Assembly (NCBI GenBank): GCA_016186955.1
Contig: JACPKP010000007.1
Span: forward strand, 1,962-65,961
DNA length: 64,000 bases
Origin: Candidatus Daviesbacteria bacterium
Lineage (GTDB): Bacteria; Patescibacteriota; Microgenomatia; Daviesbacterales; UBA10151
Direction: 5' to 3'
Part shown: positions 21,700 through 28,801 of the stretch, piece by piece
Numbering within the stretch: position 1 is the stretch's first letter
How the letters are laid out: each line of letters begins with the position of its first letter
Position numbers and translations under genes: made by a program
Notes under the pieces: model-generated
The model's input: the letters and a program-made list of their open reading frames with translations, nothing else
Told to the model about the DNA's origin: nothing
The model's database searches: none

Positions 21700-22173
21700 A
21701 TGAGATCAGGAAAAATTACAAAGAGAAAATTAGCGCCAGACCCGGTATATAATTCAAAACTTGTCACCCGTTTTATCAACAGGGTGATGTTTGACGGAAA
21801 AAAAACAGTTGCCCAAAACCTGGTGTACAAAGCTTTAGAACAAATTGAAAAAAGCGGCAAAAACCCGGTGCAGACCTTTGAGACAGCTATTGCTAATATC
21901 TCCCCCAGGATGGAAGTCAGGCCCAGAAGGGTGGGGGGAGCTTCCTACCAGGTGCCAACTGAGGTGCGGGGTGACAGGAGGGAAGCTTTGGCAATACGAT
22001 GGTTGATCACAGCCGCCAAATCCCGTTCCAACAAGGAATTCCACACTTTCTCGGAAAAATTGGCTGCAGAATTTTTGGCAGCTGCTGAAAACCAGGGTGC
22101 AGCCATTAAGAAAAAAGAAGATATTTCCAGGATGGCTGAAGCTAACAAAGCTTTCGCTCATTTCAGATGGTAA
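21700..22173 (+). CDS. rpsG: 30S ribosomal protein S7
   Basis: Typical S7 sequence; directly follows rpsL. Confidence 0.9.
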   Translation: MRSGKITKRKLAPDPVYNSKLVTRFINRVMFDGKKTVAQNLVYKALEQIEKSGKNPVQTFETAIANISPRMEVRPRRVGGASYQVPTEVRGDRREALAIRWLITAAKSRSNKEFHTFSEKLAAEFLAAAENQGAAIKKKEDISRMAEANKAFAHFRW

Positions 22174-22525: not shown

Positions 22526-23383
22526 ATGGGTCCTGATGAAGAGACTGTGGAACCAGGGTTAGAAACAGAGGAATTGGCCCAAAAGATAAACCCCTTTTGG
22601 GAACAGCCCTATCAGTTGGCAAGAGCAGTTGCCAGAAGATGGAGAAAACCCGAGGCGAAAACAGAGATAGAACCTACTATTGCGTCTACTCACCAGGAAG
22701 ATATCCTTTCAACTAGAGATAAAAAAAACAAGCGGGAATTAGGAGCAGATAGCGCTAATGTTGTACTATTTGTTGAGCTTGAAGATGATGGCTCAGCAAT
22801 ATACAAACCCGTAAGTGGAGAGCAGCCTTACTTAAGACATGGTATTGAAGCAGGGACTTATTATCAAAGAGAACGGGCAGCATACCTAGTAGATAGGTTT
22901 TTAGGTCTCGGTTTAGTTCCACCAACCGTAATACGTGAATTAGATGGTGAGATTGGGAGTTTGCAGCAGTTTATTCCAGAAACAACGGGCAGTTGGGGTG
23001 TGGATCTTTCTCAACTACAAGAAGATTTATATCAACTTTGGGTTTTTGATTATATTATTTGGAATACAGATAGACATTCAGGTAATTTACTTTTTCAGGG
23101 TAATAAGCTTTTCGCAATCGATCATGGTCTGTCTTTTGGGAGTGAGTGTCGTATGTTCATGAGGCATTTTTATGACATTGCCGCTCCCAAACAACTGGTT
23201 GGTCTGCTGGAGCAATTTTTAAAAGATGACAAAAGCAAAAAAATTCTACAAGAACTACTTGAGGAGTTGCTCAGTGAAGATGAGGTAAAGGCTTGTGTGA
23301 GAAGGATTGAACATATCGGTTCTAAATTAATCAAAAATGGTATGATCAAACTTAATGAAGATAGCATTTTCAATCCTGAATAA
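22526..23383 (+). CDS. PI3K/PI4K-like atypical kinase-fold protein
   Basis: Catalytic-loop-like IWNTDRHSGNLLF (DRHxxN) and IDHGLSFG (DFG-equivalent). Upstream AIYKP beta-strand lysine and a conserved Glu in QRERAAYLVDRF. Confidence 0.45.
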   Translation: MGPDEETVEPGLETEELAQKINPFWEQPYQLARAVARRWRKPEAKTEIEPTIASTHQEDILSTRDKKNKRELGADSANVVLFVELEDDGSAIYKPVSGEQPYLRHGIEAGTYYQRERAAYLVDRFLGLGLVPPTVIRELDGEIGSLQQFIPETTGSWGVDLSQLQEDLYQLWVFDYIIWNTDRHSGNLLFQGNKLFAIDHGLSFGSECRMFMRHFYDIAAPKQLVGLLEQFLKDDKSKKILQELLEELLSEDEVKACVRRIEHIGSKLIKNGMIKLNEDSIFNPE

Positions 23384-23388
23384 CACAA

Positions 23389-23643
23389 ATGGCTTATGTA
23401 GAGATCTATAAATTAAATAATGATGGTTCGCAAAAGATTTTGGCTGTTTGCAGGCAGCTTGGGGAAGAGGTGGTTTGTGAAGGAGAGGAAAAGTTCATTG
23501 AATATTTAAATAAAGAGGGGATTAATGATTACAATTCCCCATCCCCGAAAAAATTATTCCCAAAAGACGGTAGGTTGTTTCTTGAACAATTAAAGTACAA
23601 TTTCAAATCAGGATACCTAAATGCCACTGATTTAAAAGAATGA
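23389..23643 (+). CDS. hypothetical protein
   Basis: ORF only; 84 aa; no recognisable motif. Confidence 0.3.
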   Translation: MAYVEIYKLNNDGSQKILAVCRQLGEEVVCEGEEKFIEYLNKEGINDYNSPSPKKLFPKDGRLFLEQLKYNFKSGYLNATDLKE

Positions 23644-23652
23644 ACCGCGTTA

Positions 23653-23719
23653 GGCACAAAAGGCGTCCCCTTTTGAGGCTAAATTAATTTATACCCCCTT
23701 GTTTTAACTGTAACTATTT
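23653..23719. repeat. Y-repeat copy 1: 67-nt exact duplicate of the 3' end of the regulator gene (24481..25785)
   Basis: Identical to 24457-24523. Its reverse complement encodes EIVTVKTRGYKLI*. Confidence 0.7.
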
Positions 23720-23723
23720 TTAA

Positions 23724-23749
23724 AATCCCACCCCCTGGGTGGTCCTGAG
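23724..23749. repeat. X-repeat copy 1 (variant, CCCACC-CCCT-GGGTGG hairpin)
   Basis: AAAATCCCACCCCCTGGGTGGTCCTGAG. Confidence 0.5.
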
Positions 23750-24449
23750 TATAGGTTTCCTTTCATCGAAAAGTTGCGGGCACAACAATTATAAGATATC
23801 ATTCTTGTTTATGGAGAGAATCAGTGTGCAGGAAGCAGGGTTAGAAGGTTTACCCAGGATTAGGGGACATCATCTAAATAAACTGAAAGAGCTCTATGTT
23901 TTTATGAATACTAAAAGGGAATCTTTATCCGAATCAGGATATCAAGGTTCTTTGTCAGGAGAAATGGAAGCTTTAATCAAATTTTTTATTCAGGAACATA
24001 GCAGCGATTTGTTGACATTTGTAGATCCTGCAACCCGTACTTTTGGTTTATCTCAAGAGTGGATGATGAGTTATATAAACGATACAATTGGAGGTATTGA
24101 AGCCGAGAAAGTTAAAATATACAATCAAAAAACATATGAAGCGATTGTAAAATATATTTCATATCCGGCAAGCCAACAAGTTCTATTGACAGTTACCCCG
24201 GATTTTATTTGCAGATTATGTTTAGTGGGAACACATTGTTTAAAAAGCTCAAAATTGATGCCACTTGATTATAGAGAAATCAGAGAATTTTCAAAGTTCC
24301 AAATAAACAGGAGAAGGGATATGCAAATTTATACGGAGGAATTTAAATTTAGCGATCGCCTGAAGCCATTAATCACTAAAGTAGTGTTAACCACCTTTGG
24401 AGATATTAGGTTTTACTTATCTTTTGGTGGAATCCCACCCCCGGGTTAG
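23739..24449 (+). CDS. hypothetical protein on a repeat-flanked cassette
   Basis: ORF bracketed by X/Y repeats. The true start may be MERISVQ at 23811. No recognisable domain. Confidence 0.4.
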   Translation: MVLSIGFLSSKSCGHNNYKISFLFMERISVQEAGLEGLPRIRGHHLNKLKELYVFMNTKRESLSESGYQGSLSGEMEALIKFFIQEHSSDLLTFVDPATRTFGLSQEWMMSYINDTIGGIEAEKVKIYNQKTYEAIVKYISYPASQQVLLTVTPDFICRLCLVGTHCLKSSKLMPLDYREIREFSKFQINRRRDMQIYTEEFKFSDRLKPLITKVVLTTFGDIRFYLSFGGIPPPG

Positions 24450-24523
24450 TCCTAGGCACAAAAGGCGTCCCCTTTTGAGGCTAAATTAATTTATACCCCC
24501 TTGTTTTAACTGTAACTATTTCA
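24431..24523. repeat. X-repeat copy 2 plus Y-repeat copy 2 (native 3' end of the regulator gene)
   Basis: AATCCCACCCCCGGGTTAGTCCTAGG followed by the 67-nt Y sequence. Confidence 0.7.
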
Positions 24524-25785
24524 TAAGAGCTGTTTTGTTGCTTCAGCTTACTCCGGACTCTTGCTACCAGCCTGTCTATTGCCCAATCGGAGACTCCCAA
24601 TTCCTCTTCTTCAGGCCAGACTGCTTCAATTATGGCTTCCCGCTCACATATCTGGTTTAAGTTATTTTGTAGACAAGTAAACAACAGATGTTCTTTTTTA
24701 CTGAGTTCCAACGGTGGCATTTCCAGCGGTTTGGCCCCATTTGTCTGTCTTGATTTGATGAAATTTTCAAAGATCGGGCTAAAAATCCGGGTTTTACCTT
24801 TTTCAGTAGCAACCAGGCCGGTATCCCAAAGGTATTTACTTGAAAGTTGCCCATCTTTTGAAATTTTTTCTTTGGAGACAATCTGAATCAGTGTATCTTG
24901 CTCTGTTTCATTTAAACTGTCCCAGAGTTCTTCGGATTGTAAAGCTATCCTTTCATCCTCTATCAAGGCCGGAAAAAGTTCAAAATTTTTGTTTAAAATT
25001 TTGATTTTTTCTGAGAGAGTAATCAAGGCGAGCAGCAGGTATTGGATATATCCGCCGGAAAACGCAAATAACTCTTCCTTAAATTTTTTGGGAAGGTGCA
25101 AGTTATACTTTCTGGTGTTAACTTTATAGATAGTTTCCAGATCTTTGGGCTCTGCTGTTTTAACATACATCTGGTATACGATTAGGGCGGGAGAGGCTTG
25201 GCTGAATGCCTTGGGTGCAAGCTGGTCTAAACTCCTAAAACTTGTCAAAACATAAGTTAACTGGTGGTTGGTTGCATCATACAGGCTTTCAAGGTTGGCA
25301 AAAAGCTCAGGCGTGACAGCATCTTTAATACGGTCAAAATGGATTAAAAACATTGTCGGGATAAAGCCTGCCTGTGTGATTTTTATCAAGCTTAACCTGA
25401 CACAATCAAATAATAAAAACAGGTCTTTTGATTGAATTGAATCCAAAAAAAGGTTCTCGACATATTTTTTAATTTTAGGTTCCAAATTTAAGCGCTCGCA
25501 GTTATCAACAATCCTTTTTAAAGTTAACATCCAAAATGGGAAAACCTCCCTTTCTACCAAATCATTTAGATCCACATGGATAAATAAATGTTTTTTTCTA
25601 TTTGGAATGTGTTTGTCTATCACCTTTTTATGGCTTAAGAAAAACCTTAAGAAATTGCTGATGCCAACCCGGCGCATACCGATCATAATGATTGTCTGGC
25701 GGTTTTTGAGATAATATCCTAAATTTTGGGAGATCTCTTTCCTGAAGGTTTTTGGGTAATACGATTCCAGGACCGTGTTTACCAT
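24481..25785 (-). CDS. transcriptional regulator: degenerate AAA/STAND-like NTPase domain fused to C-terminal OmpR/PhoB-type winged helix
   Basis: N-terminal IIMIGMRRVGISNFL resembles a Walker A with Lys replaced by Ile. Walker B-like LFIHVDLND. The C-terminus EAVWPEEE...IDRLVARVRSKL...IVTVKTRGYKLI is trans_reg_C-like. Confidence 0.6.
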   Translation of the reverse strand: MVNTVLESYYPKTFRKEISQNLGYYLKNRQTIIMIGMRRVGISNFLRFFLSHKKVIDKHIPNRKKHLFIHVDLNDLVEREVFPFWMLTLKRIVDNCERLNLEPKIKKYVENLFLDSIQSKDLFLLFDCVRLSLIKITQAGFIPTMFLIHFDRIKDAVTPELFANLESLYDATNHQLTYVLTSFRSLDQLAPKAFSQASPALIVYQMYVKTAEPKDLETIYKVNTRKYNLHLPKKFKEELFAFSGGYIQYLLLALITLSEKIKILNKNFELFPALIEDERIALQSEELWDSLNETEQDTLIQIVSKEKISKDGQLSSKYLWDTGLVATEKGKTRIFSPIFENFIKSRQTNGAKPLEMPPLELSKKEHLLFTCLQNNLNQICEREAIIEAVWPEEEELGVSDWAIDRLVARVRSKLKQQNSSYEIVTVKTRGYKLI

Positions 25786-25805
25786 GCAGGTTAATTTTAG
25801 AAGGA

Positions 25806-25862
25806 TTTGGTCAAATTAGCAAATAAATCAGGATTTTGTCAGAATGTGGTCAAAATAGCGTC
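25806..25862. promoter_or_regulatory. direct repeats GGTCAAAWTAGC(N) in the regulator gene's upstream region (possible wHTH operator)
   Basis: GGTCAAATTAGC (25808) and GGTCAAAATAGCG (25848), with a TTGTCAGAATG between them. Confidence 0.25.
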
Positions 25863-25898
25863 AAGCATATATTTTATCCTTGGCAATAAAATATATCA

Positions 25899-26177
25899 GT
25901 GACAGAAAAAGAATGGACGGATTACGGTTATGGTATCTCTCCGCTTTATGCTGCAGAAAACCCGGTGACTTATTTGCCTATTGCCCAGTTTTCTGCTCCT
26001 CTTGAATGTCCGCAGGGAATAATTGTAAAAGAAGCCCAACCGGAACAAAAAATTCAACCCAGACAAATTATTGTCGCACAGCCAAAAGTAGAGTACAGCA
26101 GCTATAAACGGCTACCCTTTTGGCGCAATTTAATAATAATTCTGCAAAAATGGGCGCCCCGTATAGGTTCCATTTGA
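25899..26177 (+). CDS. hypothetical protein
   Basis: ORF only; Gln/Pro-rich. Confidence 0.25.
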   Translation: MTEKEWTDYGYGISPLYAAENPVTYLPIAQFSAPLECPQGIIVKEAQPEQKIQPRQIIVAQPKVEYSSYKRLPFWRNLIIILQKWAPRIGSI

Positions 26178-26237
26178 CTTTTAAGTTCCAAGAGGTTAAT
26201 ATGTTATTCTGTCAAACGAAAAACCACGGAAGTTAAT

Positions 26238-26368
26238 CGTGGATGAAGTTTGCTTCGCCGACAGGCGAATCTCGCCGAAGGCGAGCAGGAAGAGAAACTA
26301 CGGGCGAAGCGAAGCGGAGTCCGTAGAGGCTCATTCTAAAGCACCCCTCTTCAGGGGGCTATTTTTTG
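26238..26368 (+). ncRNA. structured leader/possible small RNA: nested GC stems ending in an intrinsic-terminator-like hairpin plus T6
   Basis: GCTTCGCC...GGCGAAGC long-range pairing, CTCGCC-GAA-GGCGAG and CTACGG...CCGTAG stems, then CCCCTCTTCAGGGGG followed by TTTTTT (26343-26368). Confidence 0.3.
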
Positions 26369-26379
26369 AAATCACACCT

Positions 26380-26628
26380 ATGGATCAGTTAAAAAAACAA
26401 AAGCTTGAAATGTGGCAAAAAAAACTTGAAGGGCTTCAAAAAGAGTTCAAGGAGATTATGGTGCGCAAAGGGGAAGCTGCAGCTGACGGTGACCTTTCAG
26501 AAAATGCAGCATACAAACAGGCTGTGGAGGAGGCTGATATTTGCCTGGTCAGGATCAGTGAAATTAAAAAAATTATAGCTAATTTGGAAGGACCCGCCTC
26601 CGCCAAGGCTCCGGCGGGCAAGGGATAA
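26380..26628 (+). CDS. stand-alone GreA/GreB N-terminal coiled-coil domain protein
   Basis: GDLSENAAYKQA signature of the Gre-factor N-terminal domain, with two Asp/Glu near the coiled-coil tip. No FKBP-like C-domain; 82 aa. Confidence 0.55.
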   Translation: MDQLKKQKLEMWQKKLEGLQKEFKEIMVRKGEAAADGDLSENAAYKQAVEEADICLVRISEIKKIIANLEGPASAKAPAGKG

Positions 26629-26632
26629 TAGA

Positions 26633-28801
26633 ATGGCTGTTACAAAGACTAAGAGAGATTACCCCCTTGATAGGATACGTAACATAGGCATCATTGCCCA
26701 TATTGATGCCGGGAAGACCACCACAACAGAGCGGATCTTATTTTATACCGGTAAAACTTATAAAATAGGTAATATTGATGAAGGCACTACCACAACTGAT
26801 TGGATGGAACAGGAAAAGGAACGTGGTATTACAATAGTTTCTGCTGCTATAACCGCTTCCTGGACTGCCAAGTCAGGACCTTTTCAAGACCAGGAGATGA
26901 GGATTAATTTAATTGATACCCCCGGGCATGTGGATTTTACAGTGGAGGTAGAGCGGTCCTTGCGGGTTTTGGACGGAGGGGTGATTGTTTTGGATGCAGC
27001 CTCTGGTGTGCAGTCCCAGACCGAGACTGTCTGGAGGCAGGCCAATAAATACCATGTTCCTCTGATTGCATTTGCCAACAAGATGGATGTGGTTGGGGCT
27101 GATTTTTTGGGCACAATCCAGTCAGCCAGAGATAGATTAGGGGCAAACGCTATCGCCTATAACCTGCCGATTGGTGCGGAAACCAGTTTTAAAGGGGTTG
27201 TGGATTTGTTGGGTAATGATGAGAAGGGTGCTTTCGCGATTGTTTGGGAGCAAAGTGGTTCTGATTTTGATCCCAGTGGTTCAAAATTTAACATAACAGA
27301 TATTCCAGAAGATATGAAAATTGCAGTTGAGGAGCACAGAAATAAATTGATTGAAGAGATTTGTGCTACGGATGAAGTTTTATTGGAACAGTTTCTTAAT
27401 GGTAAGAAGATTGCTGTTAATGATTTGAAGTTAGCTTTGAGAAAAGCAGTAATTGCTGAAAAAATTGTCCCGGTTATGGCAGGTTCTTCACTTCGCAATA
27501 AAGGGGTGCAACCAATGCTTGATAATGTGGTTAATTTTTTGCCTTCCCCCCAGGATTTGCCTGAGATTAAAGGGCTTGACCCTAAAACCCAAGAGGAAAA
27601 GATTTTTCAGAATGTAAAAGATGCCCCTTTGGGCGCTTTGGCTTTTAAAATCCAGGTTGACCCTCATGTTGGGAGGCTCACTTATGTTAGGGTTTATTCT
27701 GGGATTTTAAAATCAGGTTCATATCTTTACAACTCAACAAAAGATGTAAAAGAGCGGGTAGGGAGGGTGCTTTTAATGCACGCCAATGATAGGGAGGAGA
27801 TTGATGAAGCTTTTGCAGGGGAAATTATAGCAGTAGTGGGGTTGAAAGATACTGTGACTGGAGATACGCTTTGTGATGATTCAAACCCGATTGTTTTGGA
27901 ATCCATTACTTTTGCAGAACCTGTGATCTCTCTTGCTATTGAACCCAAAACTAAATCAGACCAGGAAAAACTGGCTTATTCTTTGCAAAGACTGGGGGAA
28001 GAAGACCCAACATTTCGGGTAAAATCTAACCCTGAGACAGGACAGACTATTATCTCCGGTATGGGAGAGCTCCATCTGGAGATTATTGTGGACAGGATGA
28101 AAAGGGAGTTTAAGGTGGAGGCGAATATTGGAGAGCCTCAGGTTGCATACCGGGAAACTATCCAAAAAGAAGCAAGGGGTGAGGGTAAGTACATCAGGCA
28201 GACTGGTGGCAGAGGCCAATACGGACATTGCTTGCTTAGGATTGAACCTCTTCCCAGGGGCCAGGGACGGGAATTTGTCTCAGAAGTTGTGGGTGGGGCA
28301 ATACCAAGGGAGTTTATTCCGGCTATCGAAAAAGGGGTTATTGAAAAAGAAGACACCGGAATGTTGGCCGGTTTTCCGGTAACGGATATCAAAGTTGCGG
28401 TTTATGACGGGTCATATCATGATGTTGATTCATCTGAGATTGCATTTAAAATTGCCGGATCCTTAGGGCTTTCCGAGGCTGCCAAAGAGGCGGATATGAT
28501 ACTTTTGGAGCCTATTATGAAGGTGGAAGTGACAACGCCTGAGGAATTTATGGGAGATCTGATTGGGGATTTATCTTCAAAACGGGCACAGATCCTGGGT
28601 ACTGAGAAAAGGCATAATTCAAGCGTGATTAATGCTTTGGTGCCTCTTGCAGAACTTGGAGGTTATATAACTGCCATAAGGTCAATGTCACAAGGTCGTG
28701 CTTCAGCCTACATTGAGCCCTCCCATTATGAGAGTGTGCCAAGTAACATTACCCAAAAAATTGTTGCATCTTCAGGGTTCACTGGCAGAGTTGAGCATTA
28801 A
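26633..28801 (+). CDS. fusA: elongation factor G
   Basis: AHIDAGKTTTTERIL, DTPGHVDF, NKMD; full length. Confidence 0.95.
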   Translation: MAVTKTKRDYPLDRIRNIGIIAHIDAGKTTTTERILFYTGKTYKIGNIDEGTTTTDWMEQEKERGITIVSAAITASWTAKSGPFQDQEMRINLIDTPGHVDFTVEVERSLRVLDGGVIVLDAASGVQSQTETVWRQANKYHVPLIAFANKMDVVGADFLGTIQSARDRLGANAIAYNLPIGAETSFKGVVDLLGNDEKGAFAIVWEQSGSDFDPSGSKFNITDIPEDMKIAVEEHRNKLIEEICATDEVLLEQFLNGKKIAVNDLKLALRKAVIAEKIVPVMAGSSLRNKGVQPMLDNVVNFLPSPQDLPEIKGLDPKTQEEKIFQNVKDAPLGALAFKIQVDPHVGRLTYVRVYSGILKSGSYLYNSTKDVKERVGRVLLMHANDREEIDEAFAGEIIAVVGLKDTVTGDTLCDDSNPIVLESITFAEPVISLAIEPKTKSDQEKLAYSLQRLGEEDPTFRVKSNPETGQTIISGMGELHLEIIVDRMKREFKVEANIGEPQVAYRETIQKEARGEGKYIRQTGGRGQYGHCLLRIEPLPRGQGREFVSEVVGGAIPREFIPAIEKGVIEKEDTGMLAGFPVTDIKVAVYDGSYHDVDSSEIAFKIAGSLGLSEAAKEADMILLEPIMKVEVTTPEEFMGDLIGDLSSKRAQILGTEKRHNSSVINALVPLAELGGYITAIRSMSQGRASAYIEPSHYESVPSNITQKIVASSGFTGRVEH

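Follow-up and report, generated by a model that had tools for sequence, protein, structure and literature searches.

We have analysed a 64,000-nucleotide stretch of a Candidatus Daviesbacteria genome (GenBank assembly GCA_016186955.1, contig JACPKP010000007.1, positions 1,962 to 65,961; the whole stretch is called the window here), which carries on its minus strand a gene for a 434-residue protein. This protein is probably a one-component regulator, conserved in Microgenomates-type bacteria of the Candidate Phyla Radiation (CPR, or Patescibacteria), in which a pseudo-nucleoside triphosphatase (pseudo-NTPase) is joined to an OmpR-type winged helix-turn-helix (wHTH) domain and which would regulate its own gene through a phased array of TGAC half-sites. 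The CPR bacteria have tiny genomes with very few transcription factors and, to our knowledge, almost nothing is known of their gene regulation. A Candidatus Daviesbacteria protein at NCBI matches the product with 100% identity, and the sole existing annotation of the family is "helix-turn-helix domain-containing protein". Homologues number 1547 at E<=1e-3, and a scan of one genome per GTDB species confirmed 163 relatives. The family appears to be distributed among the Microgenomates-type CPR, namely Daviesbacteria, Levybacteria and relatives. A search of the full-text literature, the coverage of which is incomplete, found no description of it. The parts of the gene product are as follows, all on the minus strand.

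24481..25785, minus: coding sequence, 434 residues, pseudo-ATPase NOD/AAA+ module followed by an OmpR-type winged helix (open reading frame list)
25156..25701, minus: nucleotide-binding-domain (NBD) fold, residues ~29-210 (AlphaFold2, Foldseek, family profile)
25657..25680, minus: degenerate Walker A, G36-M-R-R-V-G41-I42-S43 (sequence and alignment of 26 homologues)
25561..25572, minus: DLND, residues 72-75, conserved motif at the end of β2 (model secondary structure)
25330..25353, minus: Walker B-equivalent segment at the end of β3, M145 F L I148 H149 F150 D151 R152 (alignment with active relatives)
24751..25149, minus: helical lid and internal winged-helix domain, residues ~213-345, which complete an arrangement of NBD, helical domain and winged-helix domain (NBD-HD-WHD; model secondary structure and structural alignments)
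24487..24714, minus: OmpR/PhoB-type winged helix (Trans_reg_C), residues 358-433 (Pfam PF00486)

The N-terminal module keeps an AAA+/STAND fold

An AlphaFold2 model built on 26 homologues (mean predicted local distance difference test score, pLDDT, 83.8; predicted template modelling score, pTM, 0.74) shows, within the N-terminal two thirds of the protein, the αβα nucleotide-binding fold of AAA+/STAND proteins, with five strands (β1 31-36, β2 65-72, β3 141-148, β4 177-182, β5 204-208), followed by a lid and winged helix made up of helices at 213-259 and 270-321 and a hairpin at 325-334. A disordered linker at 350-358 joins the internal winged helix to the OmpR domain. When the model was compared with the PDB by Foldseek, the archaeal ATPase PAB2304 (2qen) ranked first with an E value of 1.5e-8, followed by archaeal ORC2 (5.5e-7) and Cdc6, SSO1545 (2fna) and Apaf-1, and it could be aligned over its full length to 2qen and to ORC/Cdc6. 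The family profile also matches 2qen across the P-loop, where GMKRVGISNFLRFFLNHK is aligned to GIRRVGKSSLLRAFLNER. The view of an initial annotation of this DNA, that the N-terminus resembles arch_ATPase/STAND proteins, is thus borne out by the model and its top match. At the level of Pfam, the window protein reaches none of the AAA thresholds (AAA_14 scores 17.1 bits against a cut-off of 27) and has no match to arch_ATPase PF01637 (ATPase_2), a model matched by only 4 of 30 relatives.

Walker A and Walker B residues are replaced together

The peptide IIMIGMRRVGIS (residues 32-43, nucleotides 25692-25657) retains the arch_ATPase motif GxRRxGK[ST] except for its lysine. The catalytic lysine of the Walker A signature GxxxxGK[ST] is occupied by I42, as the initial annotation had noted, and the isoleucine is invariant in the 26 close homologues. 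The same annotation took the first glycine to be changed to methionine; however, G36 and G41 are both retained and M37 is a variable position. It further took DLND for a degraded Walker B, which is ruled out by the location of DLND after β2 and by its conservation in active relatives: D72 is more than 90% conserved in an alignment that includes relatives whose Walker motifs are intact, and the lysine-bearing and isoleucine-bearing classes alike have VDLN-like motifs. The Asp-Glu of the active relatives (hhhhDEFD) instead aligns to I148-H149 at the end of β3, where the family consensus is [LIV]-R, so that the hhhhD[DE] signature is absent and only the following F150-D151 is kept. Among the 26 homologues at 51-68% identity, G36, R39, V40, G41, I42, F150, D151 and R152 are invariant, and the pattern G-[MIA]-[KR]-R-V-G-I-[SN] is found in all 120 close homologues among the matches listed (51-68% identity) and in all 80 GTDB loci.

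A profile of the N-domain only, searched against 1.84 billion cluster representatives, recovered 914 clusters and established sequence homology to bona fide AAA+/STAND members. Distant clusters (E 1e-20 to 1e-26, 19-26% identity) carry a canonical GxxGxGK[ST]; these active relatives match nSTAND1, AAA_16, AAA_22 and ATPase_2, and 28 of 30 also have Trans_reg_C. The Walker columns of the 121 representatives with an aligned P-loop fall into the following classes.

Lysine at the Walker A position, 31 of 121: Walker B Asp kept in 30 (D-E 12, D-D 7, D-Q 6, D-R 4, D-P 1)
Isoleucine, 81 of 121: Walker B [LIVNTMA]-R in every one
Leucine, valine or threonine, 6 of 121: Walker B Asp gone except in P0265 (Leu with D-E)
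Arginine, 3 of 121: Walker B Asp kept (D-R 2, D-K 1); intermediates such as GLPGVGRS

The lysine is therefore replaced by Ile, Leu, Val or Thr in 87 of the 121 cluster representatives, only one of which still has the Walker B aspartate. Such column counts indicate that the two motifs were lost together. Joint loss of the phosphate-contacting lysine and the Mg-coordinating Walker B aspartate is a classical sign of lost NTP binding and hydrolysis, and ATP binding appears to have been lost here. Since the distant homologues keep GxxGxGK[ST], the lysine-to-isoleucine change is best read as a derived loss, but one that is ancient and fixed across the Microgenomates clade. The initial annotation had also proposed a derived loss, in place of a family that had never possessed a canonical Walker A, and the canonical motif of the distant relatives agrees with it. 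Its description of a protein that lost ATP hydrolysis and kept the scaffold holds in that the catalytic motifs are gone and the fold is kept; it fails in that the protein shares this loss with the whole clade, in which it is conserved. The near-invariance of the replaced motifs argues that the N-module is a maintained pseudo-ATPase, neither decaying nor recently inactivated, and shows purifying selection on the degenerate Walker site.

The C-terminal winged helix belongs to a protein without a receiver domain

The OmpR/PhoB winged helix that had been proposed for the C-terminus is confirmed by the Trans_reg_C match (E 3.5e-16), which at 59.5 bits is well above the gathering score of 26.2 and spans positions 3-77 of the 77 in the profile. 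Its sequence matches in the PDB are the DNA-binding domains of ArlR, CovR, PhoB and ToxR, and the recognition helix SDWAIDRLVAR (..VSDWAIDRLVARVRSKL..) is invariant across the family. No Pfam match to a receiver domain (Response_reg) was found in the 434 residues, and the NCBIfam response-regulator models cover only the last ~75 residues (~350-434) with 12-35 bits against cut-offs of 250-470. These two results indicate that the protein is not a two-component response regulator.

A phased TGAC array adjoins the core promoter

Upstream of the gene, four direct half-sites at 11-nt steps lead up to the core promoter, and the last of them ends 3 nt before the -35 box.

25823..25867, minus: operator-like array of four direct half-sites at 11-nt steps (pattern, position weight matrix, orthologue spacing, metagenome scan)
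TGAC 25863-25860, minus: half-site 1, gcTTGACg
TGAC 25852-25849, minus: half-site 2, ttTTGACc
TGAC 25841-25838, minus: half-site 3, ttCTGACa
TGAT 25830-25827, minus: half-site 4, tcCTGATt
25794..25822, minus: core promoter with -35 TTGCTA (25822-25817), a 17-nt spacer, -10 TAAAAT (25799-25794) and 8 nt to the ATG (consensus scan)

The array is the only occurrence of TGAC-N7-TGAC-N7-TGAC in the 64 kb, where 0.08 would be expected. A 38-bit position weight matrix (PWM), made from 58 orthologue arrays with the window left out (consensus nGCTTGACtnttnaanGACTttTTtCTGACAaaAACCTGACAAna), scores 30.4 at the array; the next best position reaches 4.8, and shuffled sequence no more than 12.5. The array ranks among the best of those compared. 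When the distances between TGAC pairs were tallied over 57 orthologue upstream regions, the only peaks were at 11, 22 and 33 nt (13, 11 and 13 pairs), with none on the opposite strand. Arrays scoring at least 12 of 16 are present in 18 of 56 upstream regions; on the reverse strand 1 of the 56 has such an array, and of 2859 background windows 9 do. Operators of PhoB and OmpR consist of tandem direct half-sites with a period of ~10-11 bp that abut or replace the -35 box, with autoregulation being common, and direct repeats phased at 11 nt are a hallmark of OmpR/PhoB/SARP-type winged helices; the array has this grammar, tandem direct half-sites adjoining a core promoter. Within the window, neither the threefold TGAC pattern nor the 45-nt PWM gave a further regulon site; the looser CTGACA-N5-CTGACA at 2 mismatches gave 9 matches against 2.8 expected, with no other one array-like.

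The promoter is conserved as well. Comparison of ~60 orthologue upstream regions from GTDB genomes gives the consensus TTGC[TC]A, 17 nt, TA[CA]AAT, with a TTGC[TC]A-like -35 at 17±1 in 49 of 60 orthologues. In 46 of 60 there are 4-10 nt (most often 6) between the end of the -10 box and the start codon; only 4.8% of random ATGs have a -10 box so placed. A -10 box this close to the start codon suggests that the mRNA of the regulator is leaderless or nearly so.

The array accompanies the same winged-helix subtype across contigs

We then scanned public metagenome contigs by motif only, with GCTTGAC-N17-YTGACA-N5-CTGACA, and found at least 120 loci. A full-length orthologue, always with the Ile-type P-loop, is encoded in at least 42 of them, and in at least about 39 of these the array lies directly upstream and is co-oriented, in the order array, TTGCTAAA...TAAAAT/TACAAT, ATG. 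A second group of at least 17 loci comes from GC-richer, non-CPR contigs that encode ~230-residue FHA + Trans_reg_C proteins, the wHTH of which is 40% identical to that of the window protein (E 6e-16) and shares with it the pattern LSKKE..L..L......C.R..IIEAVWPE....SD..ID.L..R.R.K. Here, within STK/PP2C clusters, the array precedes both the gene of the FHA-wHTH protein and an adjacent gene for an FHA membrane protein. That the same half-site grammar accompanies the same wHTH subtype in two protein architectures appears to be the strongest computational support for the wHTH reading the arrays.

The array loci of this FHA-wHTH group include L084-L086, L088, L094, L099, L112, L129, L139, L144, L163, L164, L173, L191, L194 and L195, in which 4-site TGACA arrays lie 26-32 nt from the start of the conserved FHA-membrane-protein gene. 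Small open reading frames (ORFs) after these second-class arrays ("YRAGRFYDV..") were discarded as genes, being antisense readings of the 3' end of the FHA gene.

Extra arrays also occur in CPR loci (L006 at 1671-1725 and 2090-2135, L017 at ~359, L026 at ~436, L033 at ~3023, L039 at ~2957, L126 at ~6589 and, reverse-complemented, L134 at ~4108), 1-4.6 kb from the regulator and always co-oriented with it. Some orthologues without a self-array have such an array nearby (L017, L026). The GCTTGAC end of the extra arrays is 30-58 nt from the start of an opposite-strand gene, encoding a HAD-like hydrolase, GT2/GT4 glycosyltransferases or unknown proteins, and the L026 array is upstream of PGI; these genes are possible members of a regulon. 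No conserved divergent partner genes were found at the CPR arrays, where the ORFs are small and not mutually homologous. At the single locus examined of an active relative, P0238 from a metagenome-assembled genome of Anaerolineaceae, there is no TGAC array upstream.

Proposed mechanism and alternative explanations

We propose that a joint replacement of the Walker A lysine and the Walker B Asp-Glu took place at the base of the clade, giving GxxxxG-I-S and [LIV]-R-F-D-R, that the new residues have since stayed near-invariant, and that the NBD-HD-WHD pseudo-NTPase most likely serves as a nucleotide-independent scaffold for oligomerisation or sensing. The C-terminal wHTH would recognise TGAC(A) half-sites, three to four of which, in direct orientation and at 11-nt steps, end just upstream of the -35 box of its own gene. 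The scaffold-linked wHTH domains would thereby occupy one face of the DNA beside RNA polymerase and bring about autoregulation. As with PhoB, OmpR and the SARPs, such a position would favour activation, and other array-bearing promoters are probably under the same regulator. Oligomerisation, binding of the array and the direction of regulation are in this scheme what we infer from the features described above.

Several observations weigh against this scheme. A clear self-array is present in only about one third of the orthologues though their recognition helix is identical, so that autoregulation does not appear to be universal among them. Half-site 4 is degenerate (TGAT), and the distance from array to -35 varies between 13 and 19 nt. 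The extra arrays point their GCTTGAC end at a divergent gene, which the simple picture of an activator upstream of the -35 box fails to explain, and the array could be bound by another factor or serve the divergent gene. It is indeed conceivable that the array belongs to a divergent promoter or another regulator and accompanies the gene through synteny only, since the GCTTGAC end lies 25-58 nt from the start of an opposite-strand gene at arrays elsewhere, in CPR and in the FHA-wHTH class, and 33 nt from the GTG of a divergent ORF in the window, and two thirds of the orthologues are without a clear self-array. We regard this as very unlikely, however, because the upstream neighbours of the regulator are unconserved (PGK, FBA, DUF4012, small ORFs) and yet the orientation and position of the array relative to the -35 box are fixed, because the same array is found with the same wHTH subtype in a different architecture and phylum-level background, and because 11-nt phased direct repeats are established as typical of these winged helices. 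Another explanation concerns the N-domain, which may not be dead: the near-invariant P-loop-like segment with K/R38 and R39 may still take up a phosphate ligand or even a nucleotide, and the loop G-M-[KR]-R-V-G-I-S might bind a nucleotide or phosphorylated ligand through this basic pair and switch oligomerisation like MalT or AfsR. Near-invariance suggests that the loop and the F-D-R segment have a function, arch_ATPases (GxRRxGKS) have the same basic pair at loop positions 3-4, orthologues lie among genes of sugar metabolism (PGK, FBA, FBPase, hexokinase-like, PGI, PfkB kinases), and a HAD-like hydrolase and glycosyltransferases are candidate extra targets. The Walker A lysine and the Walker B aspartate were nevertheless lost together, and the conservation of the loop is equally explicable by structural or interface constraints; we consider a ligand-binding loop unlikely, but to be kept in mind. 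A further speculation, to which we would assign a rather small chance, is that the dead P-loop has been repurposed as a sensor of a phosphorylated metabolite such as a sugar phosphate, that the ligand drives cooperative occupation of the array, that the protein governs the sugar and glycosylation genes of Microgenomates as a master regulator, and that wHTH and array form a portable cassette. If so, this cassette would be combined with different sensors, the pseudo-NTPase in CPR and FHA in other phyla.

The initial annotation offered a model of its own, a recent inactivation of the P-loop (K to I, G to M, Walker B to DLND) together with autoregulation via two copies of the 12-mer GGTCAAAWTAGC upstream of the gene. 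Both copies exist, although the proximal one begins at 25809 and not at 25808.

25809..25820, plus: proximal 12-mer GGTCAAATTAGC, covering the last four bases of the -35 hexamer and part of the promoter spacer
25848..25859, plus: distal 12-mer GGTCAAAATAGC, overlapping half-site 2 of the array

They are the core of a direct repeat of 27 nt whose copies (25794-25820 and 25833-25859) lie 39 nt apart and are 78% identical. The proximal 12-mer contains a TTGACC that is 17 nt from half-site 4 and out of phase with the array. Of 87 orthologue promoters, 5 have a TGAC in the spacer, in each case at position 3-4, which favours the model, but this is the chance frequency. Against the 12-mers as an operator stand their lack of conservation, with no match in 206 related loci, no third copy in the window at <=1 mismatch and a proximal copy that is altered in the closest relative, L004. 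Their number in the window is compatible with chance (0.79 matches expected at <=1 mismatch; 18 of 100 shuffles gave at least 2). Moreover, with a spacing of 39 nt, or 3.5 helical turns, the two copies face opposite sides of the DNA, out of phase for an OmpR dimer and unlike the tandem sites of the OmpR family. We have therefore rejected the 12-mer pair as an operator; the search that had been suggested for the repeat upstream of other genes, as a means of defining a regulon, gave no further copy in the window or in the related loci. Although the lysine-to-isoleucine change is real, the loss is clade-wide and conserved and not recent, and the other two Walker assignments are wrong; as a whole this model seems highly improbable. 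Autoregulation through direct repeats is nonetheless supported, via the 11-nt TGAC array in place of the 12-mers.

Relation to known regulators

The true relatives of the regulator, judged from profile searches, are nSTAND1/AAA_16-type NTPases with Trans_reg_C (P0231, P0248, P0255, P0238), which are full-length homologues at profile E values of 1e-20 to 1e-26. They share with it the NBD-HD-WHD module, the C-terminal OmpR wHTH, the β2 motif VD.N and the F-D after Walker B; they differ in having kept GxxGxGK[ST] and D-[EDQ] and in having other recognition helices, and are themselves uncharacterised. PAB2304 (2qen) and archaeal ORC/Cdc6, the best structural matches, have in common with the window protein the AAA+ NBD, lid and winged helix, and the P-loop context G-[IM]-[RK]-R-V-G-x-S-x-[LF]-L-R-x-F-L-N is shared with PAB2304. 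Unlike the window protein, they have a catalytic lysine and an acidic Walker B and are without an OmpR-type domain.

Pseudo-NTPases and NTPase-HTH fusions are already known. Large SARPs of the AfsR type combine an OmpR-type wHTH with BTAD, an NB-ARC STAND ATPase and TPR, and MalT combines a STAND ATPase with a LuxR HTH; SARPs bind direct repeats of 11-bp period beside the core promoter, and oligomerisation of STAND proteins arranges several DNA-binding domains on arrayed sites. The window protein resembles them in the fusion of a STAND-type NTPase module to a DNA-binding domain. In SARPs, however, the wHTH is N-terminal and followed by BTAD, and the ATPase is active and ATP-regulated, whereas the window protein has its wHTH at the C-terminus and has lost the NTPase motifs; no Pfam match to BTAD or a repeat sensor domain was found in it, which sets it apart from the SARPs. 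The PhoB/OmpR response regulators have the same DNA-binding fold, but the window protein is without a receiver domain and phospho-acceptor aspartate. The FHA + Trans_reg_C regulators (L084-L086, L129, L144 and others) have the same GCTTGAC-N17-YTGACA-N5-CTGACA arrays and carry an N-terminal FHA reader of phospho-threonine where the window protein has its pseudo-NTPase.

Seen in this context, the regulator would be a modestly new variant of known designs, a STAND-HTH-like protein with a PhoB/OmpR/SARP-like operator. For the CPR, the present analysis defines a widely conserved regulator family, a candidate operator (the 38-bit PWM with four phased TGAC half-sites) and a leaderless promoter architecture. 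It also provides a natural example of a STAND/AAA+ module that lost Walker A and Walker B jointly and was then frozen by selection, a good case for studying the role of such scaffolds when no nucleotide is turned over, while it adds no new principle and is not conceptually surprising.

Locus and neighbouring genes

The regulator gene is located between two genes of the str operon, rpsG (S7, 21700..22173) and fusA (EF-G, 26633..28801), which are held ~4.4 kb apart. The gap contains a PI3/PI4-kinase-like gene, two unannotated ORFs, the opposite-strand regulator and an ORF with GreA_N only. In the locus of the closest relative, L004, S7 likewise adjoins the regulator. The regulator gene is convergent with an unannotated 236-residue ORF; the hairpin between the convergent gene ends is not significant (z -1.35), and no RNA family of Rfam was matched within 23500-26700.

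24459..24477, minus: weak hairpin CAAAAGG-ggacg-CCTTTTG, possible terminator (fold -11.7 kcal/mol, z -1.35)
25899..26177, plus: divergent ORF of 92 residues, putative gene (ORF list), with its GTG 33 nt from the GCTTGAC end of the array

The 92-residue ORF has no Pfam match and no homologue among the divergent ORFs at other arrays. In an 18-nt inverted repeat (25860-25877 and 25886-25903, 83% complementary, 8-nt loop), half-site 1 (GCTTGAC) is matched by an inverted GTCAC at the GTG of this ORF, and a second promoter-like site, CTGATA-17-TAAAAT (25899-25871, minus), is found inside the repeat. The kinase-like gene (22526-23383, plus) encodes a 285-residue protein that matches PI3_PI4_kinase (E 6e-11) and HipA_2-like kinase models and is unusual in a CPR genome. 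The small protein encoded at 26239-26628 (plus) has the N-terminal coiled-coil domain of GreA/GreB only (E 3e-11), and its gene stops 5 nt before fusA.

The window locus is without the synteny with valS and glycolytic genes that is seen in most GTDB loci. Among the GTDB loci (L001-L083), 40 of 58 have valS next to the regulator, downstream and on the same strand, followed by genes for a 161-residue membrane protein and ribosomal protein L25; upstream of the regulator, PGK, FBA-like, FBPase, hexokinase-like and PfkB-kinase genes are often found. Many of the GTDB records L004-L083 are titled "uncultured Gammaproteobacteria bacterium" (third-party annotation, TPA), which, judging by the protein family and the neighbouring genes, is a placeholder or a mislabel.

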